A DNA stretch of 64,000 nucleotides from an uncultured Gammaproteobacteria bacterium (lineage in GTDB: Bacteria; Patescibacteriota; Microgenomatia; UBA12405; CAZGPK01): positions 13,189 through 77,188 of the forward strand of contig CAZGPK010000003.1 of assembly GCA_964527115.1 (NCBI GenBank). Reading direction: 5' to 3'. The position numbers were made by a program, and so were the translations under genes. Position 1 is the first letter of the stretch; every line of letters begins with the position of its first letter. Under the pieces are notes generated by a model, which was not told the DNA's origin, did not search any database, and saw nothing but the letters and a program-made list of their open reading frames with translations. Positions 4,603 through 62,948 of this stretch are shown one piece after another.

Positions 4603-4650
4603 AGAAAAGACGGGTTGTTTTAGTAAAGCTTTTTGACTTATACTGAAAGG

Positions 4651-5241
4651 ATGACTGAGCCCAAGAGGAGAGTTTCGCTTTTACCGGGAGAGGAATTTCG
4701 AAGATCGGGTCTGGGGAAAATTATCTATTGGACGACAAGTACCGGACGTTATGTGGTGGTACTGGTGGAATTTATAGTGATTTTGGCTTTTTTGTCTCGG
4801 TTTTGGTTGGACCGGAAAAATGCTGATCTTTCTGAGGAGATAAGGCAAGAAAAGGCAATCATTGAAAGCGTGGGAGAGTTTGAGGAAGATTTTGCGGCGC
4901 TTCAAAAACAGCTAGGGCAGATAAAGCAAATGTTGGAGACTGAAGGGGCAGGAAAGGAAGCGCTGGAAACAGTGGTAAATTTGAGCTCGGGTGACGTTGT
5001 TTTTGAGTCAATTTCCCAGAGCTTGGGTGAGGATGGGTTGGGAATGGTATCGCTTGAGGCAACGGTTTATTCTGAAAGGGGGTTGGTTTCCTTTATCAAG
5101 GCTTTGTCAGAAAGCCCAAAAGTTTCAACTGTGAAAATTGACAATATTGGAAAAGACGCAAAAATAAGTGGATATCGTTTGGGTTTGCAGGTAGGAATAA
5201 ACAAAACGGTGAAGGAAAAGGAGGTAGCGGATGGTCAATAA
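4651..5241 (+). CDS. PilN-like type IV pilus assembly protein (single-pass membrane, coiled coil)
   Basis: N-terminal VSLLPGEE resembles the PilN INLLP motif. It is followed by one TM (YVVVLVEFIVILAFL) and a coiled-coil region. Start moved to the ATG at 4651, preceded by GAAAGG. Confidence 0.5.
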   Translation: MTEPKRRVSLLPGEEFRRSGLGKIIYWTTSTGRYVVVLVEFIVILAFLSRFWLDRKNADLSEEIRQEKAIIESVGEFEEDFAALQKQLGQIKQMLETEGAGKEALETVVNLSSGDVVFESISQSLGEDGLGMVSLEATVYSERGLVSFIKALSESPKVSTVKIDNIGKDAKISGYRLGLQVGINKTVKEKEVADGQ

Positions 5242-5944
5242 AACAAAAGTAAAGATCAAGGGGGCAATGGCGGGAATGATGCCAAAGTCGCTTAAAGGGA
5301 AAGGGCCGGGGGAAAAGAAGGCGAAGGTGGACTTGCACGAGCAATTTGGCAACCTCCAAGGGTATTTGCGTAAAAAAAGGGAAGACGAGCAATTTTGGTC
5401 TTATATTGAATTTACGGCAACTGTTTCTTTGGTGCTTGTTTTTTTGGTAGCGGCGATTCGGCCAACTGCTTTTACCATTGCCAAGCTCTTGGGAGATATA
5501 AGAAGCAAAGAGGAGGTAAGCGCTAAGATGAAGGGGAAAATTGGAGATCTTTTGGAAGCCCAGTCTCTTTTTATTGAGGCCCAAGACTCCTACGAAACAA
5601 TTGCTTCTTTTTTGCCGGAGAGAAAAAACATCAGCCAGGTAGTGGAGCAGGCGGTAGGCTCGGGGCAGAGAGCGGGGGTTAGAGTGAATAAAGTGAGTAT
5701 CAGCAAAGAAGGAAAGGAATCAGGAGAGAGCAAGGGAAATAAAGAGTTAAAACAAGCCTCTTTTGAAACTGGTACCGAGGCTGATTGGCGACAATTTTTA
5801 GCTTGGTTGGGATATTTAGAAAAAGCGAGAAGATATGTAACAATAGATCGAGTAGCGATTTACCAAAGCAGAGAAAAAAGGGATGAGGGAGGAAAGGCAA
5901 GAATGTCAGTATCCGGTCGTTTTTATTGGTGGGAGAAATTATGA
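5231..5944 (+). CDS. PilO-like pilus assembly protein (single-pass membrane, coiled coil)
   Basis: Basic N-terminus, one TM (ATVSLVLVFLVAAI), a coiled coil, then an IASFLPERKNISQVVEQ segment like the PilO LP.. motif. Overlaps the upstream gene by 11 nt. Exact start uncertain. Confidence 0.4.
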   Translation: MVNKTKVKIKGAMAGMMPKSLKGKGPGEKKAKVDLHEQFGNLQGYLRKKREDEQFWSYIEFTATVSLVLVFLVAAIRPTAFTIAKLLGDIRSKEEVSAKMKGKIGDLLEAQSLFIEAQDSYETIASFLPERKNISQVVEQAVGSGQRAGVRVNKVSISKEGKESGESKGNKELKQASFETGTEADWRQFLAWLGYLEKARRYVTIDRVAIYQSREKRDEGGKARMSVSGRFYWWEKL

Positions 5945-10930: not shown

Positions 10931-11974
10931 TTAAACAAGATGAAGTTTTTTACGTAGATTTAAGAGGTGCCAACGGGAAGAATCAACTAAAGAATAGAGG
11001 CGGTAGAGAGAAGGCTTAAGAACCAAGTCCCAGGTACCAGTAAATTGAACCAGTTGTCCAGCATAGCCCATTTTGAAGCGGTGAAAACCGATCCAGGAAT
11101 TTTTGGGATCGGAATTGGGGCCTAAAGTGCCCCACATGTCAAAAGTTTTAAAGCCGAGGCGGCGACCCAAAAGAATGGCTTCCCACATGAGAAGGTTGCT
11201 GGCCATAACTTTTTTGTGAGCAGAGGAGCTGGCGCCGTAGGGGTAATACCAGGTATCAGACAGGCCGAAAAGGAGATAAGCAGCCAGAGTTTCATTTTGG
11301 TAGCGGGCCTGAAGAAGGTGAAGCATGCCGCTTGGCTTTAAAGTTTCCCAGAGAAGTTCGTGGTAGGCGCGAGTATGGAGATAAAAACCCTTGCGGCGGG
11401 TAAGATTGAAGGTGAGATCAAGGTAGGCCTTGAAACCCTGATCAGTAGTTTCCTCTACCACTTTCACCCCGTGGCGGGAGGCAAGGCTGATGTTGTAGCG
11501 GGTTTTGGGATGAAGAGCAGCTAAAAGCTCTTCCTCGGTTTGAGTGAGATCAATCAGGGCGGTATATGGAGAAAAAGCGTGGCGAGAAGAAGGGTAAAGA
11601 TCGGGAAAATTGGGAAGAGGGGTATCTTCTTTAAACGAAGTTTGATCGGGAGAAAAGCGACGATGGATACTGTTAGGCTCAAGTCTTATGAAAATGGCTT
11701 TCTGGTCGCGAGCAACAGAGCGAAGACTTTTTAACATTTCTTCGTCTGGTTGGGGACCACGAGGGAGGTAGCCGGCAAAATACGAAGTGTGGGGAATGGG
11801 ACTGAAGATGACTGAATAGGCAGAGAGCATTTTTTCATTTTCAAAAACTCCGAGGCGGACAACTTTTTTTCCTTGTTTTTCAGCAAACTCACCCCAGGCC
11901 CAAGTTTGTAAAGGATGATGAACGAGAGAGTCATAAATTGATCTTTCTTTTTCATAGAGAAGACGGGTAATCAT
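10931..11974 (-). CDS. FemAB-family peptidoglycan bridge-forming aminoacyltransferase
   Basis: 347 aa. The N-terminus HHPLQTWAWGEF is typical of FemX/FemAB (lipid II:aminoacyl-tRNA transferase family). Confidence 0.8.
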   Translation of the reverse strand: MITRLLYEKERSIYDSLVHHPLQTWAWGEFAEKQGKKVVRLGVFENEKMLSAYSVIFSPIPHTSYFAGYLPRGPQPDEEMLKSLRSVARDQKAIFIRLEPNSIHRRFSPDQTSFKEDTPLPNFPDLYPSSRHAFSPYTALIDLTQTEEELLAALHPKTRYNISLASRHGVKVVEETTDQGFKAYLDLTFNLTRRKGFYLHTRAYHELLWETLKPSGMLHLLQARYQNETLAAYLLFGLSDTWYYPYGASSSAHKKVMASNLLMWEAILLGRRLGFKTFDMWGTLGPNSDPKNSWIGFHRFKMGYAGQLVQFTGTWDLVLKPSLYRLYSLVDSSRWHLLNLRKKLHLV

Positions 11975-17448: not shown

Positions 17449-17976
17449 TTATTTTTTAGAAAGGCGGGAAATAATAAAGCGATAAAGGATAAGGCCAATA
17501 TAGCCAAAAAGAAGGCCCAGGGCAAGACCAGCCAAGATATCAACGGGATAGTGAAGGCCGGTGATGACACGAAAGAAGAGAAAGGGGAAAAGAAGGAAGA
17601 AAAGGAGGAAACGGAGTGGGCGAGAGGGACGGAAAAGAGCCAAGAGAAAGATAAAAAGAAGAGTTAGCTTTAGGGCATGACCAGAGGGGAAAGAGCCACC
17701 TGAATAGTGAGAAGAGAGAAGCGCAGGTGGAGTAGGCAGGGCCTGGTCAAGAAAGGGGCGGCGCCAGGGAGAAAGGGTGGCTTTTAAAAAGTTTTCAAAA
17801 AGCTCAGCTAGAGCTAAAGAAAAGAGAAAAAAGAAAGCTGAGAGGCGACTCTTTTGAAAAAAAAGAAGGAGGAAACCAAGGATTAGAAAAATCCAGGGAA
17901 GATAGTTAAAAAAGATCCAAATAAAAGGGGAAGGGGTGGGATAAACAGTTGGTTGCCAAAAAAGTATTTTATCCAT
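17449..17976 (-). CDS. PAP2-family (polyprenyl-)phosphate phosphatase
   Basis: PAP2 motifs K..SPWRRP, PSGH (SFPSGHAL) and R.....H...D (FRVITGLHYPVD). Confidence 0.65.
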   Translation of the reverse strand: MDKILFWQPTVYPTPSPFIWIFFNYLPWIFLILGFLLLFFQKSRLSAFFFLFSLALAELFENFLKATLSPWRRPFLDQALPTPPALLSSHYSGGSFPSGHALKLTLLFIFLLALFRPSRPLRFLLFFLLFPFLFFRVITGLHYPVDILAGLALGLLFGYIGLILYRFIISRLSKK

Positions 17977-18964
17977 TTGAGGAAAGAGATTGATTTTTAC
18001 ATTTTAGGAAAAAAAAGATGGCAAGGAGACCAATGCTGGTGCCAAACCAAAGGGTAGTGGCGCGAGAAAGGAGAGCAATGGTAATGGCTTGATCCCGAGA
18101 GAGGGTGAAGAGGAGAATAAGAAGACCGATGGTGGTGGGCTCGGCAACACCAATACCACCGGGCATGGGAACGGTAAAGCCGATGGCAGCTGAAAAAGTG
18201 AAAATGAAAGTAATGGTAAAGAGACCAGCAAGGCCGGCAAATTGAGGGTTAACCTGGGTAAGGATGAAATAGCCCCCGGAAATCTGGGCAAACCAGGCAA
18301 GGATAGCAAGAAGGGAACCAGCAAGGAGAGTGCTGGGATGGGTGAGACTGGAGGCGGAGCGAAAGAAATTGTCAGCCTTGGTAATGTATTTTTTGACCAG
18401 TGGCAAGCGGGAGAGAACTTTGAAAAACCAAGGCCAGAGTTGTTTCTTTTGAAAGAGGGTGACAAAGGCAAGGCAAACCAGGAAAGCGGAGCCAAAAACC
18501 CACCAACCTAAGCGAAAGGACATCACTCCCCAGAACATAAGGAAAAGCATGGCAAAGGCATCGGTCAGGCGCTCGATAAAGAAAAGGGGGGCGGTAGTGG
18601 AGAAGGAGATGCCGTGGCGGTCTTTTAAGAAGTAGGACTTGATAAGCTCCCCTCCCCGCATGGGGGTGATAGCCATACCAAGACCGGTAAGAAAGATAAG
18701 AAAAGAAGAAGAAAGGGAAACATTGCTGGCGACTTTTAAACGGGTCAAAAAAAACTGCCAGCGAAGGAAACGGAGACCGTAGTTTAAGAGACTTAAGGAA
18801 AGGGCGGTAAAGATGACAAGAGGACGGACATTTTTTATCTCGGCAAAAATTTGCTTTTGGTCCCCCCAGTGAAGAAGAAATAAAACCAGGATCAAGAAAA
18901 GAGCCAGGGGGGGGATAAGGCGAGAAAGAGAGGTGAAAGAATATTTTTTCTTTTGATTGGACAT
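17969..18964 (-). CDS. Flippase-like / LPG-synthase-TM (UPF0104) family membrane protein
   Basis: 331 aa, 8 TM. LNYGLRFLRWQFFL and MRGGELIKSYFL segments are typical of this family. 8-nt overlap with the PAP2 gene. Confidence 0.6.
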   Translation of the reverse strand: MSNQKKKYSFTSLSRLIPPLALFLILVLFLLHWGDQKQIFAEIKNVRPLVIFTALSLSLLNYGLRFLRWQFFLTRLKVASNVSLSSSFLIFLTGLGMAITPMRGGELIKSYFLKDRHGISFSTTAPLFFIERLTDAFAMLFLMFWGVMSFRLGWWVFGSAFLVCLAFVTLFQKKQLWPWFFKVLSRLPLVKKYITKADNFFRSASSLTHPSTLLAGSLLAILAWFAQISGGYFILTQVNPQFAGLAGLFTITFIFTFSAAIGFTVPMPGGIGVAEPTTIGLLILLFTLSRDQAITIALLSRATTLWFGTSIGLLAIFFFLKCKNQSLSSNG

Positions 18965-18985: not shown

Positions 18986-20158
18986 ATGCTTATGGAAAAA
19001 GGGAAGATAAAAGAGAAGAAGGAGAAGCCCAGGGTTTTAGTTTCTTTGACGTATTTTTCCCCGAACGTTTCCGGAGTAACGATATATGCGGATATTCTGG
19101 CCCGGGAATTGGTAAAAAGAGGGTACGAGGTAGGGGTGATTTGCAGTCAAAACAAAAAAGATCTACCCAAACAAGAGACAATTGAAGGGGTAAAAATTTT
19201 TAGGGTAAGGGTCAATTTTGCCTTGGGAAAAGGGGTGTTGATGCTTGGCTTCCCAAAAGAGGCCTGGAAACAGGTAAAAATGGCAGATGTAGTTAATTGT
19301 CAGCTACCCCAGATAGAAAGCTTTGTCTTGGCCTTTTGGGCAAAGATCTTAAAAAAGAAACTAGTAATCACCCATCATTGTGAATTTGGGATAGACGGGC
19401 CATGGACAAATATAGTTACTGGAATTTTAAGCTATCCTTTTCACTTAATTTCTTATCTTTTGGCAGACAGAATTGTCTCCTATACAGAAGACTATGCAAA
19501 GCATTCCATTTTTTTAAGGCATTTTAAGAAAAAGACAGTTTTTGTTTTACCGCCGGTGCTGGTGGAGAAAACAGCCAAAGAGAAAGAGGTAGAGATTGGA
19601 GAAAAGATAGGCAGAGATAAGGATAGCAAGATAATTGGTTACGTAGGACGGGTCGCCTGGGAGAAAGGATTAAATTTTTTACTGGAGGCTTTGGAAAAAG
19701 TAAACCAAAAAATACCGGCAAAATTAGTGCTGGTTGGTCCGTATGAAGAAGTGCTGGGAGATAACTCTTACCAGAAACTTAAACCTCTTTTAGAAAAACA
19801 GAAAGATAAAGTAAAGCTTTTAGGTCCCCTGCCCCACAAAGAAATTGGGGCTTTTTTGAAAAATTGTGATTTGTTGGTTTTACCAAGCACTAATAACTTA
19901 GAAACGTTTGGAATTGTACAAGCTGAGGCAATGATTATGGGAGTACCAGTGGTAGCCAGCAATTTACCGGGAGTACGAGTGCCGCTGCAATTAACGGGAA
20001 TGGGAGAAATAGCTAAAGTTGGTGACAGTAATGATCTGGCAGAGAAAATTGTCAAGGTTTTAAAAACTTCTTACTCTCCACTATTTTCAAAAAAAGCTCG
20101 ATCTATCTTTTGCCTGGAGAGGTTTGTAGAAAATTACGAAGAAATACTAAGATCTTAG
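18986..20158 (+). CDS. GT4-family glycosyltransferase
   Basis: GT-B fold hallmarks: SGVTIYADILARELVKRGYEV at the N-terminus and the EX7E region ETFGIVQAEAMIMGVPVVAS. Confidence 0.8.
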   Translation: MLMEKGKIKEKKEKPRVLVSLTYFSPNVSGVTIYADILARELVKRGYEVGVICSQNKKDLPKQETIEGVKIFRVRVNFALGKGVLMLGFPKEAWKQVKMADVVNCQLPQIESFVLAFWAKILKKKLVITHHCEFGIDGPWTNIVTGILSYPFHLISYLLADRIVSYTEDYAKHSIFLRHFKKKTVFVLPPVLVEKTAKEKEVEIGEKIGRDKDSKIIGYVGRVAWEKGLNFLLEALEKVNQKIPAKLVLVGPYEEVLGDNSYQKLKPLLEKQKDKVKLLGPLPHKEIGAFLKNCDLLVLPSTNNLETFGIVQAEAMIMGVPVVASNLPGVRVPLQLTGMGEIAKVGDSNDLAEKIVKVLKTSYSPLFSKKARSIFCLERFVENYEEILRS

Positions 20159-20162
20159 CTTC

Positions 20163-20188
20163 CTAGTTCGAGTCCAGTGCGGGGAGCC
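20163..20188 (+). repeat. Island repeat copy 0 (tRNA T-arm-like, short variant)
   Basis: ctagttcgagtccagtgcggggagcc starts 5 nt after the GT4 stop codon. It aligns to copies 1 and 2 with a 5-nt gap. Confidence 0.6.
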
Positions 20189-20412
20189 CATAAAACATCC
20201 CGACTTTCTGGTTTACCGAAGACCCAAACTTTGACGAAATCATTAAAACGGACTCATAATACCATTTCTGTCCAAATCGCAATATTTATTCAAATTTTAG
20301 GTTGGGAAAATATATAAGGATGTTCACAGAAGAATACTTAGAGAAACCTAAAGTAAAATTAAGATTCAATGTGATAGTATGTAATGTGTTTAGCTGAAAA
20401 TACCCATAATAT

Positions 20413-20640
20413 ATGGTAAAATGCCTAATGCCAGCGAATTGTCCGGAATGCAAATTTGGTGAGTCGAATTATTGCTTGATAAAAAGAGTTTTTATTGATC
20501 GAAGAGGAGAAACAGTTAAAGAAGAATCTTTTGGAAGTCAGTCTCTCATAGTTTGTCGGCCTCCAGGAACTCGCTCTGGATTTCCATATCGTAATCGGAT
20601 TGCACCCCTTGGGTACTGTGAAAGTGGCGAAAAAAAGTAG
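20413..20640 (+). CDS. Small Cys-rich protein (possible Zn-binding; 75 aa)
   Basis: C4, C10-x2-C13 (CPEC) and C21, plus C48 and C69. Lies 12 nt upstream of the AlaRS-like gene on the same strand. No clear SD, so coding status is uncertain. Confidence 0.35.
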   Translation: MVKCLMPANCPECKFGESNYCLIKRVFIDRRGETVKEESFGSQSLIVCRPPGTRSGFPYRNRIAPLGYCESGEKK

Positions 20641-20652
20641 GAACTTAAGACT

Positions 20653-21837
20653 ATGCCAAGAAACGAGTTAGATCCCTTAACCAAATTTGTTGAAAATAAC
20701 AGCCTATGTCTTAATGGTGAATTTATTTATCCCAGAACAGTATCAAATCCAGACTTCTCCTTCAGGGAACCAATCACTCACGATGGGAGACATTTTAGGT
20801 TTCTCGAATCTCCTATAGATCAAAAAGGGGCAGAGTTACTATCAACACCCGACTTCTTTAATCAATTTTTTACTAAAAACGGTTTTGATGTAATATCACC
20901 AATTCCATTGGTTAATAAAAACGGTACAACCTTATTTATTTGTGCTGGAGTTCAAATTCTTGACTCTGTAATTCATCAAGAAGCTCCAATTCCCCAAAAA
21001 CCGTCATTTGTGGCTCAACCTGTTCTAAGAACTCAGTTTATAGACTATATCGGAGAAGGGACATCGACTAGCTTTATTAACGTATCAACCTGTCAACTAA
21101 ACCTCAGCCGTCAAGAACATTTTCAGCATTTACAAACTTGGGTAGATCTATTTTTACAACTAGGACTTAAGGAGACAGATTTATATTTCAAAATCAAACC
21201 CTATGAACAGCGATGGGGGGACAAAGTTGTAAAAAGCGAAAAAATCTTTATCATTTATGACGGATTAGAAATAGGAGATTCTTCCTATGTTGAGAATCTT
21301 CCTCAAAAAGGCAGACGCAATTTATCCTTAAGTGATATTGGTTTCGGGTTAGAAAGAATTAAATGGATTATGCAGGGAGGGTCATATTTTGACGTATTAG
21401 GCAATGGCAGAGTATCGGATAATATTGACAGAGTATCAGCTGTTTGCACCCACACCCTATCTCTATTAGCTGGTGAAGGTCTAAAACCATCCAACAAGGA
21501 ACAGGGTTATCGATTTAGGTTATTCTCCAAAAAATTAGTTTCAGATATTTTAGGCAACCACTTAGAAACCAATGAACAAGTTAGAAGCTATTATGATTAT
21601 TGGAAAATATGGACCAATTTATCACTTTCGGTAGATCAAGCATTACATGCAGTTACTCAAGAAAATACCAGAAATTTCAATCGAAATTTATTGGACAAAC
21701 TCTGTGAAAAATATCCAGATGTTGGGTTAGATATAAATCTGCCGACTACCGTTATTTTAAAACGATTAAAAGGTACTAGTGTAAAACCAGATTATTTATC
21801 ACAGGTGCTTTATGAATTAAAATACCAGAATGGATAG
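20653..21837 (+). CDS. Stand-alone class IIc aminoacyl-tRNA-synthetase catalytic core, AlaRS-like paralogue (no tRNA-recognition, editing or C-Ala domains)
   Basis: Colinear with the AlaRS N-domain. TTLFICAGVQ matches TLLFTNAGMNQF and QPVLRTQ matches QRCVRAGG. SDIGFGLERIKWIMQGG matches VDTGMGLERIAAVLQ and KPSNKEQGYRFR matches MPSNEGRGYVLRR. Only 394 aa. Confidence 0.75.
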   Translation: MPRNELDPLTKFVENNSLCLNGEFIYPRTVSNPDFSFREPITHDGRHFRFLESPIDQKGAELLSTPDFFNQFFTKNGFDVISPIPLVNKNGTTLFICAGVQILDSVIHQEAPIPQKPSFVAQPVLRTQFIDYIGEGTSTSFINVSTCQLNLSRQEHFQHLQTWVDLFLQLGLKETDLYFKIKPYEQRWGDKVVKSEKIFIIYDGLEIGDSSYVENLPQKGRRNLSLSDIGFGLERIKWIMQGGSYFDVLGNGRVSDNIDRVSAVCTHTLSLLAGEGLKPSNKEQGYRFRLFSKKLVSDILGNHLETNEQVRSYYDYWKIWTNLSLSVDQALHAVTQENTRNFNRNLLDKLCEKYPDVGLDINLPTTVILKRLKGTSVKPDYLSQVLYELKYQNG

Positions 21838-22534
21838 TGATATAAATACATCAATTGGTCAAATATTTCTTGGCGGTGGTGGTGGAGCGGAAGATAGTGT
21901 TTTGCTCGATAAAAGATTTCTTAATGCTCTAAAAAACAAAAAAATTGTATATATTCCAATTGCTTTAACACCAAAGTTAGGTGGTTATGAAAGTTGTTTT
22001 GATTGGATAACCTCCACTTTAACTAACGCATCGGATGATTTTATTGAAATTTCCATGTGGATAGATCTTAATAAAAAAAGCATAACTGATTTGGAAAACT
22101 ATGGCGGAATTTATATCGGAGGTGGTAATACTTACAAACTATTAAATCATGTATATAAGTCTGGATTTAGTGAAGTCCTAATTGAATTTTATAACCGGGG
22201 TGGGCTAATTTATGGTGGAAGTGCCGGAGCAGTTATTCTAGGCAAATCAATTTCAATAGTTTCCGAAGAAAATGACGCGAACTATAAATATGAGAATGGT
22301 CTCAATTTGTTGAATGATAAATCCGTACTATGTCATTTTGATAAAGACATTAAGATTACAGTTGAGCACTTCATAGAGAATAAAAGAGGGGATGTAATCG
22401 CGCTTACTGAGAAGTCAGGACTAATAATATCAAATAATAATTCGGTTGAATCGGTTGGTTTTGAACCAGTAACTATTTATACCCTTTCGGGTAAAGACGA
22501 ACAGTTAAACCCTGGAGAAAAGTCAAAAATTTAG
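21830..22534 (+). CDS. S51-family serine peptidase (peptidase E / cyanophycinase-like)
   Basis: GIYIGGGNTYKLLNHV...GGLIYGGSAGAVILGKSI matches PepE IVIVGGGNTFQLL...ALYIGWSAGANL. VLCHFD matches INPHF. 8-nt overlap with the upstream gene. Confidence 0.8.
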   Translation: MDSDINTSIGQIFLGGGGGAEDSVLLDKRFLNALKNKKIVYIPIALTPKLGGYESCFDWITSTLTNASDDFIEISMWIDLNKKSITDLENYGGIYIGGGNTYKLLNHVYKSGFSEVLIEFYNRGGLIYGGSAGAVILGKSISIVSEENDANYKYENGLNLLNDKSVLCHFDKDIKITVEHFIENKRGDVIALTEKSGLIISNNNSVESVGFEPVTIYTLSGKDEQLNPGEKSKI

Positions 22535-22556
22535 ATGTGGTGTTATAATATTACCC

Positions 22557-23513
22557 ATGGTATCGCTAAAAGAAATCGGCCTTGTTGACACAATTGATTG
22601 TCATACTCATTCTGGTGGTGTAGACCTTTACAATCTATATACTGGTGATTTACCTATGGCTCAGTCTGTTGACGATTTAGTTCTTAAAGCCAGATCTTCA
22701 GGCATTTCTAAAGTAGTAACCTTTCCTTTTCCAACTACCGGCTATTACAATGTTCACGAGCTGGTCACACGTAACGTAAGAATTCCCTCGGGGCAACAAG
22801 ATTTCCCCTATCAAGTTGAAAATATGGCTTTAATAAAAGGTTGTGAGAACTCCGACCTTCCACTCTTACCTTTTATGGCCATCGATCCATCAAATCATAT
22901 TCAGGAACAAGTAGATAGCCTCCGCCAAAATTATAAAAAAAGAAAATTCTATGGTTTAAAATTACATACTCTGGCAACAGGTTCTACTGCTGATAAACTA
23001 ATTGGTTCAGAAATTGTAGAATTTGCTCAGGAAAAAAATATACCAATAATAATTCACTCAGGTTTGGGTGACGAGCATTCACACCCTCAAAACATAGTTA
23101 AATTAGCCAAACAGTCTCCAAACCTGCGTGTTTGTGTGGCTCACCTTGCTTGGTTAGACGAAGATACAATTAAAAATGTGGCTAAAACGAACAACGTGTT
23201 TATTGACACTTGTCCGTTTCTCCAAATATGTAACCGTGTCAGAAAAGGAAGTAAAATGGTATTTTCACCAAATTTAATAGATCCCAACAAACCAGCCGAA
23301 TCTTTGTTTAATTATTATAAATTATTAAAAAATAATTTAATTTGGGGTACAGATGAACCTTGGACAAAATGCATAAGTGCGAGAGGAAATGTCTCCAGTA
23401 ATCATACTTATGGTGACGAAGCCCAGGTTATTTCGGATCTATTTCAAATCTCCCCTCAAGCTGCGCTGGACATTACTTCTCGGAACACTGAAAGATTTAT
23501 CTTTGGTTCATAA
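22557..23513 (+). CDS. Metal-dependent TIM-barrel amidohydrolase (amidohydrolase_2-like)
   Basis: N-terminal HxH (IDCHTHSGG), internal IIIHSG and CVAHLAW His residues, and the C-terminal WGTDEPW Asp motif. Confidence 0.7.
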   Translation: MVSLKEIGLVDTIDCHTHSGGVDLYNLYTGDLPMAQSVDDLVLKARSSGISKVVTFPFPTTGYYNVHELVTRNVRIPSGQQDFPYQVENMALIKGCENSDLPLLPFMAIDPSNHIQEQVDSLRQNYKKRKFYGLKLHTLATGSTADKLIGSEIVEFAQEKNIPIIIHSGLGDEHSHPQNIVKLAKQSPNLRVCVAHLAWLDEDTIKNVAKTNNVFIDTCPFLQICNRVRKGSKMVFSPNLIDPNKPAESLFNYYKLLKNNLIWGTDEPWTKCISARGNVSSNHTYGDEAQVISDLFQISPQAALDITSRNTERFIFGS

Positions 23514-24769
23514 ATCTTAATCTGTCCACTAACTATTTTATTAGTTATTTCACTGTGTTTTATAAGATTTTCTTCAACTATATTACTTATACTCATCCTT
23601 AATTCCTCGTCAATATCTTTCTGATATCCATCTAGTGCGATAGCGGCTTGCCAGGGATCATTCATATCTCTGCCCATTTGTGAAGTTAAGTAAACAGTGC
23701 TTTCAATACCTAACGTTTTAAATATTTCTTCGGCAATAATGTCGCCAATTACAGTAAATATTTTTCCAGTATGATAAACAGGATTTTTTCCGCAAGGTGC
23801 CTCTGAGCTCATGTTCCTTGTAAAAGGGATTATTCCATTCGACCTGTTCCCTCTACCTACCGCTCCTTCGTCTCCGCTCTCAACTGCGCTCCCAATGGCG
23901 GTTAGATATATATCTTGATTATCAAAATTATCACGGGTATTTAATATAATATCTATCGAATATGTCGGAAATTCCCTCTTTAGCATATTGATAAGCAATT
24001 CTTTTAGTTCGTTTAGTTTTTGAATATAGAAACCCTGGTCAGGTGTAAATTCTGCAATAAATGGGATACATAAGGTTAACTCAATATTCTTACTAACTCT
24101 TTTTCCCATTACTTTAATATCAGTCCCAACATATTGATGAGATTTTTTAAATTTAGCGTTGTCTAGTAATCCCTCGGAAATAATCACCATGTTCTCCAAA
24201 TCCGATAAAGGAAAATAGCTTACCGTAGTGGAAGTATCATTCGACCTAAATCCATTGCTATGATGTTTTATATACTTTTCATCAGACACTGAAAAGAATT
24301 GACTTCTTTCATTCTTAGTCGTGCCATCCTTATTGTAAACCACTCCCGGTCCTTGGGAAAAATGTGTATTATCGATAATTTTTAACCATTTATCTGTATC
24401 TAATAACGGAAAGATATTTTTAAAGTGATCTTTTACAACATTATTGACGATTTTCATATAGTCAATTTCTTCATCTAAAAAAATATGAGTAAATCTTCCA
24501 TTTAGCAATATTCTTATTGGAGAAGTCATTTCTCCCTGACCAAAACTTACCTTTGAAGAACCTCCAAGGACGGCAACCTTATCCACCATATGACGTAAAA
24601 TTACCCCATACTTATCAAGACAATAAGTTGAGTATGCCACCGAAATTTTCTCCGCTACCGCATCACATAAATTGTCTGGGTGGCCAATCCCTTTCCTTTC
24701 GACAACTTCATACTCTGTATCATTGATATTTGGCTTACCTGTCTTGAAAACGACAAAATTATTTAACAT
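23456..24769 (-). CDS. Archaeal-type S-adenosylmethionine synthetase (MAT)-like protein
   Basis: VVERKGIGHPDNLCD, SNDTSTTVSYFPLS, GTDIKVMG and YLTAIGSAVESGDEGAVGRGNRSNG...GKNPVYHTGKIF are colinear with M. jannaschii-type MAT motifs. The 3' end overlaps the amidohydrolase gene by 58 nt. Confidence 0.85.
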   Translation of the reverse strand: MLNNFVVFKTGKPNINDTEYEVVERKGIGHPDNLCDAVAEKISVAYSTYCLDKYGVILRHMVDKVAVLGGSSKVSFGQGEMTSPIRILLNGRFTHIFLDEEIDYMKIVNNVVKDHFKNIFPLLDTDKWLKIIDNTHFSQGPGVVYNKDGTTKNERSQFFSVSDEKYIKHHSNGFRSNDTSTTVSYFPLSDLENMVIISEGLLDNAKFKKSHQYVGTDIKVMGKRVSKNIELTLCIPFIAEFTPDQGFYIQKLNELKELLINMLKREFPTYSIDIILNTRDNFDNQDIYLTAIGSAVESGDEGAVGRGNRSNGIIPFTRNMSSEAPCGKNPVYHTGKIFTVIGDIIAEEIFKTLGIESTVYLTSQMGRDMNDPWQAAIALDGYQKDIDEELRMSISNIVEENLIKHSEITNKIVSGQIKIYEPKINLSVFREVMSSAA

Positions 24770-24870
24770 ATGTTTCTGATTATATCTCTACTATCAGCGT
24801 CAGTAAACAAAAACCCATATTATTTTTATAATCTAGGAACCCCCTTCTCATTTTTTGATAAAATTAACTG

Positions 24871-25395
24871 ATGAAAACATATATTCTCCCCGGATACTCT
24901 GACAAAAATAAGTTTTGGGTTGATGAAACCGTCGCTTTTTTAAAACCAGCAATTCCGGCAATTGGTCTTTACTGGAATCATTGGGATGGCAGTTCCACAG
25001 AAGATGGCTGGATTGAAGAAGAAGCTCGAAGAATTATAAATGACTCAAATAATGAGAAAATAAATATTGTCGCTAAATCTGTCGGGGCAATGGTTTGTAT
25101 GGCTGTACTAAAATTAAAGCCAGAATTAGTAAATAAAGTAATTTTGTGTGGAATCCCATTTAAAGACTTTCTTCCAGGTGATGAAAAGAGATATGAGTCT
25201 TTAAAATCTGTTATGCCAAATAATATTCTGCGTATCCAAAATGAGGAAGATAATTATGGATCATTTGAGAAGACGGAATCCTTTGTTCGTTCAATTAATC
25301 CCAACATTAAAGTAGTCTCAAAACCACGAAACGATCACTACTATCCCTACTCGGAAGATTTCAAGAATTTCTTAATCGAGAACAATAATCAATAA
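24871..25395 (+). CDS. Small alpha/beta serine hydrolase (YdeN/RBBP9-like)
   Basis: 174 aa. Nucleophile elbow IVAKSVGAMV, acidic NEEDNYGS and C-terminal NDHYYP His. Divergent from the MAT-like gene across a 101-bp spacer. Confidence 0.6.
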   Translation: MKTYILPGYSDKNKFWVDETVAFLKPAIPAIGLYWNHWDGSSTEDGWIEEEARRIINDSNNEKINIVAKSVGAMVCMAVLKLKPELVNKVILCGIPFKDFLPGDEKRYESLKSVMPNNILRIQNEEDNYGSFEKTESFVRSINPNIKVVSKPRNDHYYPYSEDFKNFLIENNNQ

Positions 25396-25679
25396 AGCTA
25401 ACTTATACAATCGAAGTTTGTAATCTCTTAATTTCTCTTAATCTATTCTCCATCACCTCCATATCCATCGCGTTGTTAAACGCCTTATTAATCCTATCTA
25501 ACGCTACTATAATATCTTTAGAGCTGGGGAGCTCTACAGTGTAGGCGGGATGGGGTAAATTAGATTTGAATCAGATTTAGAAGATACTGCCCTACTCTCT
25601 TTGATAAGTTTATGTTGTTTTTCTTAGGGGAATAATTGATTAAAGATTGTGAGAGCGTGATGTTTGATAGAATTGGTGG

Positions 25680-26333
25680 ATGACTACAGAAGAGCCTCTT
25701 GAGATTCAGAGTGGTGCAATCGAAGAGAGGTTTGCAGCAAACAGGGAATTGCCACATATACGGGTAGATGATTTAAAACCGTTTTGGGTAAGGGGAATTA
25801 TTGATCCAGAAGATCCCTGGAGCATCCAAACAGTTGAAGAAGTACCAGTTAGGCTGATAGCGGCAAGTTCTGTTTTGAGAGATTGGGGCGATATTCAAAG
25901 ACAGAGTGGAGAAAAATTAAAAAGAATAGTTGATGGTCTTCGTTCTGGAGAGCTTGTGCCCGACAGGGAGCCAGTTATTCTTTTTGAATATGGGGGAATT
26001 TACGGCATATATGATGGGCAAAAGCGAATGATGGCGGCAAAGGCGCTGGGGATGGAAACTTGGCCAGCAAGAATACAGAGAACTATGCCAACCACTTTGG
26101 AATTTTCAAGAGATACGGCTGCCTATCACGAGATAATGGGAGGAAGAATGGAAGGTGGGCTGTGGGAAGGGAAGCTTGAAGAGGTTGCGCTTGACGAGCA
26201 AGGAGGCTTAGTTTCTTCTAGATGGTCAATAGAAAGATATGATGGTTTATGGGTTTTTGCAAAGAAAATGGATCTGGCTCGAAGTGTGTATGAAAAACTT
26301 GGAGCAAATGGACAGGCTCCAAGCCTAATATGA
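25680..26333 (+). CDS. ParB/Srx-fold (ParB-like nuclease domain) protein
   Basis: IYDGQKRMMAAKALGMETWPARI matches the ParB N-domain core (DG..R..Aa..lG...ip). 217 aa with no recognisable HTH. Confidence 0.55.
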   Translation: MTTEEPLEIQSGAIEERFAANRELPHIRVDDLKPFWVRGIIDPEDPWSIQTVEEVPVRLIAASSVLRDWGDIQRQSGEKLKRIVDGLRSGELVPDREPVILFEYGGIYGIYDGQKRMMAAKALGMETWPARIQRTMPTTLEFSRDTAAYHEIMGGRMEGGLWEGKLEEVALDEQGGLVSSRWSIERYDGLWVFAKKMDLARSVYEKLGANGQAPSLI

Positions 26334-26364
26334 TCGACAGGGTGGCGTAAAGTTAGCCTCAAAA

Positions 26365-26395
26365 CTAGTTCGAACATAGTCCAATTGAGGGAGCC
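26365..26395 (+). repeat. Island repeat copy 1
   Basis: ctagttcgaacatagtccaattgagggagcc. A 23-nt stretch (aaaactagttcgaacatagtcca) is identical to copy 2. Contains the 8-bp palindrome GTTCGAAC. Confidence 0.85.
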
Positions 26396-26776: not shown

Positions 26777-26788
26777 GTGATCTTAAAA

Positions 26789-26820
26789 CTAGTTCGAACA
26801 TAGTCCAGCCGGGGGAGGCC
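26789..26820 (+). repeat. Island repeat copy 2
   Basis: ctagttcgaacatagtccagccgggggaggcc lies 13 nt after the stop codon of ParB-like gene 2. Confidence 0.85.
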
Positions 26821-62519: not shown

Positions 62520-62528
62520 AATAAAAAG

Positions 62529-62602
62529 TAGCAGGGGACGGAATCGAACCGTCGACCTCGGGGTTATGACTCCCGTGCTCTAACCAACTGAGCTACCCTG
62601 CC
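62529..62602 (-). tRNA. tRNA with anticodon CAU (Met, fMet or Ile2 not distinguishable)
   Basis: Hand-folded 74-nt cloverleaf: acceptor GGCAGGG/CCCTGCT (G1-U72), D arm GCTC-AGTTGGTTA-GAGC, T arm GACGG-TTCGATT-CCGTC. The anticodon loop is GTCATAA with an A31-C39 mismatch. Confidence 0.85.
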
Positions 62603-62626
62603 AAGGGAAGTTGATAGGTAGATTTT

Positions 62627-62650
62627 AACAAAAATCCCGCTGGGGCGGGA
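62627..62650 (-). terminator. Small hairpin plus U-run between the two minus-strand tRNAs
   Basis: tcccgc-tggg-gcggga is followed on the minus strand by TTTTTGTT. Confidence 0.4.
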
Positions 62651-62660
62651 CTTTAAAATT

Positions 62661-62733
62661 TGGTTGCGGGGCCGGGAGTTGAACCCGGTCTGTGAGATTA
62701 TGAGCCTCACGTGCAGCCGTACACTACCCCGCA
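62661..62733 (-). tRNA. tRNA with anticodon CAU, CCA encoded (initiator-like acceptor end)
   Basis: Acceptor TGCGGGG/CCCCGCA followed by A and CCA. Short D arm GTGT-ACGGCT-GCAC. Anticodon arm TGAGG-CTCATAA-TCTCA. T arm CCGGG-TTCAACT-CCCGG. Confidence 0.8.
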
Positions 62734-62829
62734 CGCTTTGAAAACTTTAAGGAACAGGCTATTCTACCAAGCCTGCCTCAAGAAGACAAGGAAGCGGAAG
62801 GGAGTATTTTGGGGTAAAATATCGCCAGG

Positions 62830-62903
62830 GGGCGTGTAGCTCAGTTGGTCAGAGCGCCGATCTTATACATCGGTGGTCGATGGTTCAAATCCATCCACGC
62901 CCA
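62830..62903 (+). tRNA. tRNA-Ile with anticodon UAU
   Basis: Perfect cloverleaf: acceptor GGGCGTG/CACGCCC, D arm GCTC-AGTTGGTCA-GAGC, T arm GATGG-TTCAAAT-CCATC. The anticodon arm is CCGAT-CTTATAC-ATCGG. Confidence 0.85.
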
Positions 62904-62948
62904 CAAAATATGCATTTTAAAAGGTGGTAAAGAAAGACAAGAAACGGT

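Follow-up and report, generated by a model that had tools for sequence, protein, structure and literature searches.

AlaL, a stand-alone paralogue of the alanyl-tRNA synthetase core, forms a conserved mobile module with a Peptidase_S51-family hydrolase and an archaeal-type S-adenosylmethionine synthetase in ultra-small prokaryotes

The 64,000-nt stretch of DNA analysed here (the window; from contig CAZGPK010000003.1 of assembly GCA_964527115.1, assigned to Patescibacteriota by GTDB) carries at 20653..21837 of its plus strand an intact open reading frame (ORF) with an ATG start, whose 394-aa product resembles the catalytic core of alanyl-tRNA synthetase (AlaRS) and which we refer to as AlaL. 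The start of the next gene, encoding a 234-aa Peptidase_S51-family serine hydrolase (S51; 21830..22534, plus strand), overlaps the AlaL stop by 8 nt, and a gene for a 437-aa archaeal-type S-adenosylmethionine (SAM) synthetase (MAT, PF01941; 23456..24769, minus strand) is convergent with the AlaL operon. AlaL, S51 and MAT constitute a conserved, mobile three-gene module of ultra-small prokaryotes, as described below.

The AlaL protein begins with an archaeal-type N-terminal extension (residues ~1-65), continues as a class-II catalytic core (~66-250) and ends in a basic helical C-terminal domain (~251-394). It falls below the threshold of the Pfam tRNA-synt_2c model (PF01411; 23.8 bits vs a cut-off of 30.3), and it reaches neither the equivalog cut-off of TIGR03683, the NCBIfam model for archaeal AlaRS, which matches residues 47-242 with an E value of 2.6e-11 (42.5 bits vs 744.7), nor that of TIGR00344 (29.9 bits vs 457.05). 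Comparison with Archaeoglobus fulgidus AlaRS (PDB 2ztg/3wqy) gave E 1.7e-9 for the single sequence and 3.4e-14 with the family profile, while hhalign against residues 1-461 of Escherichia coli AlaS (from NC_000913) returned a probability of 96.9. When an AlphaFold2 model of AlaL built on 46 relatives (pLDDT 93.2, pTM 0.92) was searched with Foldseek, AlaRS structures ranked first, led by the archaeal 2ztg (E 5.9e-18, TM 0.66) and followed by bacterial and human AlaRS catalytic fragments and then by the alpha subunit of glycyl-tRNA synthetase (GlyRS). These comparisons confirm that AlaL is AlaRS-derived, with distant but real homology to the aminoacylation domain; its closest relative is archaeal AlaRS, at ~16% identity. 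Another fold for AlaL is ruled out by the Foldseek ranking, and a pseudogene or alaS fragment by the intact ORF, a dN/dS of 0.11, the large and length-uniform family and the invariant catalytic residues, including the Arg of motifs 2 and 3. The first-pass annotation, made from the sequence alone, had proposed a stand-alone paralogue of the AlaRS catalytic core, and profile search, structure search, selection and a family length of 320-430 aa all bear it out.

That annotation had also held that everything beyond the helical subdomain was missing, which is correct for the editing domain (tRNA_SAD) and C-Ala, both gone from AlaL with no Pfam matches past the core, but not for the helical half of the tRNA-recognition region, which is kept together with its PSN..GYRxR motif. 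In a global profile alignment the C-terminal end of AlaL reaches ~E. coli AlaRS residue 421. Most of Mid2 is also missing, and the N-terminal extension typical of archaeal AlaRS is present. AlaL may bind RNA, because the C-terminal domain is basic (median pI of 8.6 across the family), and the retained Asn of the PSN motif would fit such a role.

Residue conservation was counted over 96 unique AlaL-family sequences. Twelve positions are invariant in 96/96 (Q101, Q122, P123, R126, F141, N143, G208, D228, G230, F231, G232 and R235), and W188, the equivalent of E. coli W170, is found in 94/96, D209 in 92/96 and E206 in 89/96. The motif-2 segment QPVLRTQ (residues 122-128; 21016..21036, plus strand) contains R126, which corresponds to E. 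coli R69, and the motif-3 region SDIGFGLER (residues 227-235; 21331..21357, plus strand) contains D228 (E. coli D235), G230 (E. coli G237) and R235, the motif-3 Arg; the retention of the motif-2 Arg and of the Asp that binds the alpha-amino group, both noted from the single sequence, thus extends to every family member. Contacts with the adenosine nucleotide and with the alpha-amino group are predicted for R126, F141, D228, G230 and R235. The motif-2 loop has been reshaped and lacks the GGKHND segment.

The strand LEIGDSSY (residues 205-212; 21265..21288, plus strand) pairs with IEIWNIVF of E. coli and LEVATLVF of A. fulgidus, and SFINVS pairs with FFEMLG of E. coli and LFEMMA of archaeal AlaRS, such that FEM becomes F(V/I)N; both pairings had been made in the first-pass annotation and were upheld by the alignments. 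The contention that the amino-acid pocket is altered stands in part. D209, which sits where bacterial AlaRS has Asn and archaeal AlaRS Thr, and residue 211, the E. coli V214 equivalent, do differ, the latter being a variable small residue (S/T/A/V/G/N among the 96 members), but loss of the Trp and Asn of IEIWN is not peculiar to AlaL, as archaeal AlaRS carries Ala/Thr (GLEVATLVFM) at these positions. Judged from the alignments, Asp209 is the sole truly family-specific change in this strand, and the comparison shows a predicted pocket that is remodelled yet still small.

AlaRS recognises the G3:U70 pair of its tRNA through two residues, Asn359 and Asp450 in A. fulgidus and Asn303 and Asp400 in E. 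coli (PMC8583063). The first corresponds to N281 of AlaL, located in KPSNKEQGYRFR (residues 278-289; 21484..21519, plus strand) and kept in 78/96 members, and the second pairs with a non-conserved G/Y/S/N position in a part where the alignment is weak. One of the two G3:U70 readers thus appears to have been lost in the AlaL family.

AlaL belongs to a large family. A word-indexed search recovered 68 stand-alone relatives of 326-417 aa, every one annotated as hypothetical, and an exhaustive profile search extended this to at least 284 representative clusters (50% identity) at E <= 1e-30 and 493 at <= 1e-10, nearly all of them stand-alone proteins of 320-430 aa. Members occur in bacteria of the candidate phyla radiation (CPR; Microgenomates/Shapirobacteria, Paceibacteria, Saccharibacteria and others), in DPANN archaea (Woesearchaeota, Nanoarchaeota and Micrarchaeota) and in reduced gut Bacilli (Ca. 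Aphodocola, Mycoplasma sp. CAG:776 and Bulleidia); a search of viral contigs returned no AlaL relatives. Between AlaL and its closest relative (locus L065) dN/dS is 0.107. These data support AlaL as a large, cross-domain family of intact stand-alone AlaRS-core paralogues under purifying selection. No Pfam or NCBIfam model is dedicated to it, our literature search did not find a paper describing it, and reviews of aminoacyl-tRNA synthetase (aaRS) paralogues contained nothing comparable except AcmF of ascamycin biosynthesis. In one Nanoarchaeota metagenome-assembled genome (MAG; L064, 7598-8889) the AlaL gene is split in two, which could be a sequencing error or ongoing gene loss.

To describe the gene neighbourhood we pooled 55 genome loci and 80 metagenome loci into 124 unique AlaL loci and counted neighbours, labelled by hidden Markov models, within 5 kb in the 45 loci with at least 3 kb on each side. 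The first six neighbourhoods examined all contained the trio of archaeal-type MAT, AlaL and S51. MAT is the most constant neighbour (43/45 well-flanked loci, 96%), followed by S51 (39/45, an undercount), which directly adjoins AlaL in 82 of the 98 loci with at least 900 nt of downstream flank; radical-SAM genes (9/45) and a module-specific glycosyltransferase (GT; 8/45) are less frequent, and some clusters, such as L124, have no MAT adjoining AlaL. The genes also diverge together, with a rho of 0.80 for AlaL-S51 and 0.60 for AlaL-MAT (Mantel p = 0.002), values to which shared species history contributes. Three gene fusions were found: AlaL::S51 in P0301, AlaL::class-I SAM methyltransferase (TRM5/TYW2-like) in P0320 and S51::Glycos_transf_1 in L017/L018.

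Both partners in the window are under purifying selection (dN/dS 0.09 for S51 and 0.075 for MAT). The S51 protein scores 81 bits against PF03575 (threshold 23.9), remains below the PepE and cyanophycinase equivalog cut-offs, and carries the GxSAG nucleophile and the His in GGSAGA and CHFD, which align with the motifs of Lmo0363 and cyanophycinase. The MAT protein scores 340 bits against PF01941, matches PDB 6s81 with E 6e-68, does not attain the NCBIfam equivalog cut-off (311 vs 481) and displays the signature motifs ERKGIGHPD, NDTS, DIKVMG, GDEGAVGRGNR and GKNPV.H.GK. Compared with the window MAT, the module MATs of L010-L064 fall into two similarity classes, a window type in Bacilli and Paceibacteria (E ~1e-145 to 1e-229) and a second in co-directional CPR/DPANN clusters (~1e-77 to 1e-96), all of them below the NCBIfam MAT equivalog cut-offs. 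The literature on archaeal MAT active sites yielded no residue list fit for judging the methionine preference of the module MAT.

The module comes in several arrangements. In the commonest, type A, found in Paceibacteria and others, a divergent gene for seryl-tRNA synthetase (SerRS) precedes AlaL and S51, with MAT convergent (SerRS< AlaL> S51> MAT<), and the window harbours a variant of it, AlaL> S51> Amidohydro_2> MAT<. Reduced gut Bacilli have MAT> AlaL> S51> and, after these, either SerRS or a Cof-type HAD phosphatase. In type B, of CPR and DPANN, an optional radical-SAM gene precedes MAT> AlaL> S51> GT>, sometimes with a gene for myo-inositol-1-phosphate synthase (MIPS); this GT is a module-specific GT-B enzyme that most resembles tetrahydrobiopterin glucosyltransferase and AviGT4, both small-molecule GTs. 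Type C (L067, L124, L144 and L148) lacks S51 and combines AlaL, MAT and SerRS with a DegT aminotransferase, radical SAM-SPASM enzymes and a GT, and in L124 also with a GFO/IDH/MocA oxidoreductase. S51 and DegT are mutually exclusive (42 loci with S51 only, none with both, 3 with DegT only and 3 with neither; Fisher p = 0.001, on small numbers). The module-specific GT is directly adjacent in 12 loci spanning CPR, Bulleidia and DPANN. MIPS occurs in 5 loci, DegT in 4, NT5C-like nucleotidases in 5, carbamoyltransferases in 5 and histidine kinases in 12, and the accessory phosphatases also include Cof-HAD and His-phosphatase types. In L013 (4124-5175) the GT is frameshifted, which could be a sequencing error or ongoing gene loss.

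Two loci, L068 and L069, contain three further truncated class-II aaRS-like genes, a methyltransferase and Peptidase_S66. In L068 (11497-16977; L069 is alike) the AlaL::S51 fusion is followed downstream by two tRNA-synt_2b+HGTP_anticodon genes that overlap (409 and 389 aa), by a gene for a UbiE-like methyltransferase and by a truncated tRNA-synt_2 core (373 aa) placed directly before the Peptidase_S66 gene (MccF/LdcA family). The latter two may be a second pair of class-II aaRS core plus serine peptidase.

SerRS is encoded within 5 kb of AlaL in 20 of the 45 well-flanked loci (~44%), and none is visible in the window itself. SerRS and module adjoin one another in five or more different gene orders, in CPR, Bacilli and archaea alike, and the linked copies are all full length, with the tRNA-binding N-domain, and of the host's own type, including a methanogen-type SerRS in L124 and, in Bacilli, an ordinary Firmicute SerRS that is 59-65% identical to thousands of others. 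The module therefore repeatedly became a neighbour of the host serS. A travelling, albomycin-like resistance copy is disfavoured by the same host-type, full-length character and by the ordinary nature of the Bacilli copy. No riboswitch or T-box was detected in the window or in 10 Bacilli loci, and no dedicated tRNA gene travels with the module in the loci examined. A Bacillota MAG (L051, 1-6921) has two SerRS ORFs within 9 kb, one of them cut by the contig end, together with MIPS, MAT and AlaL, and from this pair some lineages may possess a module-dedicated SerRS paralogue.

In the window the cassette resides in a low-GC island (20100..25600; GC 0.31-0.39 vs 0.40-0.47 in the flanks), and close relatives have the same four genes between unrelated flanking genes. 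These differing flanks and the low GC content suggest that the cassette is horizontally mobile, and, consistent with this, 7 loci have a large serine recombinase (Resolvase + Recombinase domains) no more than 7 kb away from the module (for example L058, 5689-6756). The fourth gene, an accessory of the Microgenomates-type cassette, encodes a 318-aa Amidohydro_2 metal-dependent hydrolase (22557..23513, plus strand); it also occurs in L001, L011, L012 and L066, and in L065 it is fragmented (4622-5473) while AlaL, S51 and MAT are intact, a decay that may reflect gene loss in progress or errors in sequencing.

Immediately upstream of AlaL, at a distance of 12 nt, lies a 75-aa Cys-rich ORF (20413..20640, plus strand), which the first-pass annotation had put forward as a possible acceptor. 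Its only homologue is in L065 (76% identity, dN/dS 0.29), with none in L066 or L010-L012. Although probably a genuine gene, it is lineage-specific and does not belong to the conserved module, and the suggestion is not supported. A small alpha/beta-hydrolase-like ORF of 174 aa (24871..25395, plus strand), also inside the island, adjoins AlaL in 0 of 45 other loci.

At the right-hand end of the island, where GC rises back to 0.44, lies a 217-aa ORF (25680-26333, plus strand) with no Pfam or NCBIfam match and no homologue near the AlaL family in other loci. An imperfect 17-nt direct repeat with 15/17 matches (GAGAGGTTTGTAGAAAA at 20117-20133 and GAGAGGTTTGCAGCAAA at 25725-25741) nearly coincides with the two GC transitions and may be either the scar of an insertion or a coincidence, and a 36-nt direct repeat (86% identical; 26358-26393 and 26782-26817) is intergenic between the 217-aa ORF and a YibE/F-like gene. 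Up to 10 kb upstream of the cassette, amid genes for large Phe/Leu-rich membrane proteins and a GT4 glycosyltransferase (18986-20158), are genes for a FemAB-family enzyme (aminoacyl-tRNA-dependent peptidoglycan bridge formation; 10931-11974, minus strand) and for a protein with only the LPG_synthase_TM domain (MprF flippase-type; 17969-18964, minus strand), neither of which is a conserved neighbour of the AlaL family elsewhere. PADLOC matched none of 7 genes at the locus to a known anti-phage defence system, and promoter-like sites there are no commoner than chance.

Elsewhere in the window, a tRNA cluster (62528-62904) contains two tRNA-Met(CAT) and a tRNA-Ile with the anticodon TAT; a UAU anticodon is uncommon for bacterial tRNA-Ile, AUA usually being decoded by a modified CAU tRNA. 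GC skew is positive in nearly all 2-kb bins across the 64 kb and its cumulative curve climbs without reversal, which probably places the whole window on a single replichore. AT skew is highest (0.33-0.45) at 16-18 kb and 36-40 kb, where Phe/Leu-rich membrane proteins are encoded on the minus strand.

The data show the fold, the conserved residues, purifying selection, gene linkage and the fusions, whereas the reaction, the kind of acceptor and the sequence of steps are proposed. We propose, at a probability of roughly 0.45, that AlaL is a catalytically competent, non-translational descendant of archaeal-type AlaRS that would serve as the ligase of a mobile tailoring module for small molecules or glycoconjugates. 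An adenosine nucleotide would be held between F141 and R235 and a small amino acid by D228, G230 and W188 to give an aminoacyl-adenylate, and the aminoacyl group would then pass to an amine (or hydroxyl) of a sugar, cyclitol or nucleoside scaffold in place of A76 of a tRNA. The nucleophile might become available by two routes. In one, the translationally coupled S51 would strip an N-acyl group to expose it, sometimes after a dedicated GT-B enzyme has built the scaffold on inositol phosphate; in the other, followed by clusters without S51, an oxidoreductase or radical-SAM enzyme and the DegT aminotransferase would install an amine. On this proposal the dedicated archaeal-type MAT would supply SAM, for which some clusters show radical-SAM or methyltransferase partners, and the fusions would mark consecutive steps of the route from GT to de-N-acylation by S51. 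The logic would be that of mycothiol synthesis (Ino1, MshA, a phosphatase, MshB and then MshC, a paralogue of cysteinyl-tRNA synthetase, CysRS), here with a class-II core. That AlaL uses a different substrate or acceptor had been surmised from its altered segments; conserved gene context and the fusions make a non-tRNA acceptor plausible.

Several observations weigh against this proposal. Scaffold-building genes are in the minority (GT in 8-10 and radical SAM in 9-11 of 45-48 loci, with MIPS and DegT likewise few), the commonest arrangement (SerRS, AlaL, S51 and MAT) shows none, and the window cassette contains only hydrolases besides the AlaL and MAT genes. MAT has the tightest linkage of all (96%), though most clusters show no SAM-using enzyme, and the host's full-length SerRS in ~44% of loci is left unexplained. 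The activity for which S51 enzymes are known is that of Asp-specific peptidases rather than deacetylases, AlaL may bind RNA through its basic C-terminal domain and the PSN Asn that it has kept, and the exclusivity of S51 and DegT rests on 3-4 DegT loci.

Because MAT dominance and the SerRS link are unexplained by the ligase proposal, we retain an AcmF-like and a SAM-binding alternative; judged by sequence, the conserved active-site residues would equally fit SAM, an ADP- or nucleoside diphosphate (NDP)-sugar, or an AcmF-like, aminoacyl-tRNA-dependent reverse reaction. An AcmF-type transferase is an unlikely but serious contender: SerRS would make Ser-tRNA(Ser) and AlaL would move the seryl group onto an acceptor amine with no amino-acid activation of its own, an adenosine- or NDP-containing acceptor sitting in the former ATP pocket, where the conserved "ATP" residues would also hold it. 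The precedent is AcmD (an AlaRS) with AcmF (truncated and AlaRS-like) in ascamycin synthesis (PMC12945691), and the linkage of a host full-length SerRS in 20-21 of 45-48 loci, with no fewer than five gene orders among CPR, Bacilli and archaea, its ordinary housekeeping type in Bacilli, and the Mid1 helical domain, PSN Asn and basic C-terminal domain kept in the AlaL family all fit. However, AcmF is reported to have lost most ATP- and alanine-activation residues (N219Q, D232E) whereas the Asp and both Arg of AlaL are invariant, tRNA(Ser) is without G3:U70 and is normally read by its long variable arm, for which AlaL has no domain, more than half of the well-flanked loci have no SerRS nearby and no tRNA gene accompanies the module. 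A SAM-utilising enzyme, which we rate as distinctly improbable, would accommodate SAM in the adenylate site, either for transfer of its 3-amino-3-carboxypropyl (ACP) group to an acceptor or for aminoacylation of its ribose; the adenine might lie between F141 and R235, the sulfonium and alpha-amine might be met by D209/D228 and the carboxylate by R126, a geometry proposed from residue identities and not from coordinates. Were AlaL to use SAM, the dedicated MAT would be explained, and the constancy of MAT (43/45 within 5 kb) and its co-divergence with AlaL (rho 0.60), the resemblance of SAM to an aminoacyl-adenylate in size and shape, the near-invariant acidic D209 in place of Asn/Thr near the AlaRS phosphate/carbonyl position, the AlaL::SAM-methyltransferase fusion and the absence of another SAM-using gene from the commonest cluster type all point this way. 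Conversely, no class-II aaRS fold is known to use SAM, the invariant motif-2 and motif-3 Arg are a classic ATP signature, and where clusters include radical-SAM enzymes or methyltransferases MAT already has an ordinary use. In a broader version, rather improbable as a whole, a SAM-retooled AlaRS core acting with S51 and the host SerRS would make a novel aminoacyl- or ACP-modified nucleoside or glycoside of ultra-small symbionts, SAM from the dedicated MAT being an aminoacyl-adenylate look-alike used for ACP transfer or as SAM/adenosine scaffold for aminoacylation; the product might, for instance, be an effector aimed at the host or decorate the surface as needed for episymbiosis of CPR, DPANN and Mollicute-like Bacilli.

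We give little credence to the idea that AlaL still works as a minimal tRNA synthetase, loading Ala, Ser or Gly onto tRNA(Ala) or a different tRNA for some specialised use such as supplying aminoacyl-tRNA to cell-envelope transferases, or as the catalytic subunit of a split AlaRS. The catalytic-core residues, the G3:U70-reading PSN Asn and the basic C-terminal domain are all kept, AlaL extends to ~E. coli residue 421 and thus past adenylation-only fragments, for which E. coli AlaRS 368N/461N are the reference, a split AlaRS is known in Nanoarchaeum, and the window also encodes the FemAB-family enzyme and the LPG_synthase_TM protein. But AlaL scores far short of the AlaRS equivalog cut-offs (42 vs 745 and 30 vs 457 bits) at ~16% identity, the E. 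coli Asp400 reader is not conserved, most of Mid2, the editing domain and C-Ala are missing, as is the GGKHND segment of the motif-2 loop, and what is conserved around AlaL is a hydrolase, MAT and sugar/cyclitol enzymes, whereas no second AlaRS piece appeared in any neighbourhood examined (the flanks being short). The FemAB and LPG genes, moreover, do not recur beside the AlaL family elsewhere, and AlaL resides in a low-GC island that is mobile. We regard a genuine minimal synthetase as a less likely reading. Scarcely credible is a non-catalytic regulatory subunit that senses an amino acid or ATP and controls MAT or S51, in the manner of HisZ with HisG. The very tight MAT linkage would suit it, and the precedent is HisZ, a paralogue of histidyl-tRNA synthetase (HisRS) that regulates ATP phosphoribosyltransferase (PMC9734150). 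However, the motif-2 and motif-3 Arg and the amino-group Asp of AlaL are invariant rather than degraded, the fusions are to enzymes of consecutive chemistry (S51 and methyltransferase) and not to MAT, and some clusters, again including L124, have no MAT adjacency. Overall, the observation made in the first-pass annotation is confirmed and its interpretation partly supported.

AlaRS is regarded as the most architecturally conserved synthetase. Until now AcmF was the sole characterised truncated paralogue of its catalytic core, AlaX-type editing-domain paralogues being a separate class, and AlaL adds a large cross-domain family with intact catalytic residues and fixed partners (S51, an archaeal-type MAT and often SerRS). 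If AlaL is the ligase that we propose, it would be a class-II counterpart of MshC and would signify an unrecognised metabolite or surface modification, spread by horizontal transfer, in organisms thought to be nearly devoid of biosynthesis. The three-gene cassette, which lends itself to heterologous expression, offers a testable way into the little-understood physiology of episymbiotic ultra-small microbes.

Among known systems, the archaeal AlaRS fragment (2ztg/3wqy; Pyrococcus horikoshii 2zze) is the best match in sequence and fold, colinear with AlaL over the N-terminal extension, the class-II core and the first helical subdomain for tRNA recognition, and sharing with it the motif-2 Arg, the adenine-stacking Phe, the equivalents of Trp170, Asp235 and Gly237, the motif-3 Arg and PSN..GYxxR. 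Unlike archaeal AlaRS, AlaL is without the Mid2 beta-region, editing and C-Ala domains, and has Asp209 for Thr/Asn and F(V/I)N for FEM. The next-best fold is the GlyRS alpha subunit GlyQ (E 1e-8 to 1e-9 and TM 0.33-0.39, vs 1e-18 and 0.66 for AlaRS), which has a compact class-IId core and a helical bundle like AlaL and needs a partner protein for tRNA; the AlaL loci, in contrast, have no GlyS-like partner gene. Other stand-alone class-II cores have been recruited for making amide or ester bonds on metabolites or proteins, or for regulation (AsnA, EpmA/PoxA, SerRS-like amino acid:carrier-protein ligases and HisZ), but these come from AspRS, LysRS, SerRS or HisRS and not from AlaRS, none is tied to S51 or MAT, and AlaL loci have no conserved carrier-protein gene.

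The only characterised stand-alone AlaRS-like enzyme is AcmF, which uses Ala-tRNA(Ala) in ascamycin biosynthesis (PMC12945691; Zheng et al. 2024 ACS Catal 14:3533). Like AlaL it is a truncated AlaRS-derived protein without editing and C-Ala domains; it N-aminoacylates a nucleoside outside translation and is encoded beside a full-length aaRS and a hydrolase able to remove the aminoacyl group. As compared by the description of AcmF, it keeps the full tRNA-recognition domain whereas AlaL is shorter and archaeal-type, with D228 invariant where AcmF has Glu, Asp where AcmF has Gln at the Asn position, and R126, F141 and R235 invariant. The aaRS neighbour is SerRS for AlaL and AlaRS for AcmF, and the constant partners of AlaL are S51 and MAT. 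MshC, a precedent for an aaRS paralogue acting on a small molecule (PMC9736012), is the Cys:GlcN-Ins ligase, a class-I CysRS paralogue that puts an amino acid via its adenylate onto a sugar-inositol amine. The AlaL accessory set of MIPS, a GT4-like GT, phosphatase and putative de-N-acylating hydrolase mirrors the Ino1/MshA/MshA2/MshB/MshC pathway, although MshC is class I and AlaL class II, so that the likeness is a functional analogy only and involves no homology; the AlaL module also has S51 instead of an LmbE-type MshB, its MAT and SerRS linkage is without a mycothiol counterpart, and its scaffold genes are in the minority. The accessory repertoire thus resembles mycothiol (MshA/B/C) or AcmF logic and, by analogy, AlaL would fall within the group of aaRS paralogues recruited as non-translational ligases, as an AlaRS-derived member.

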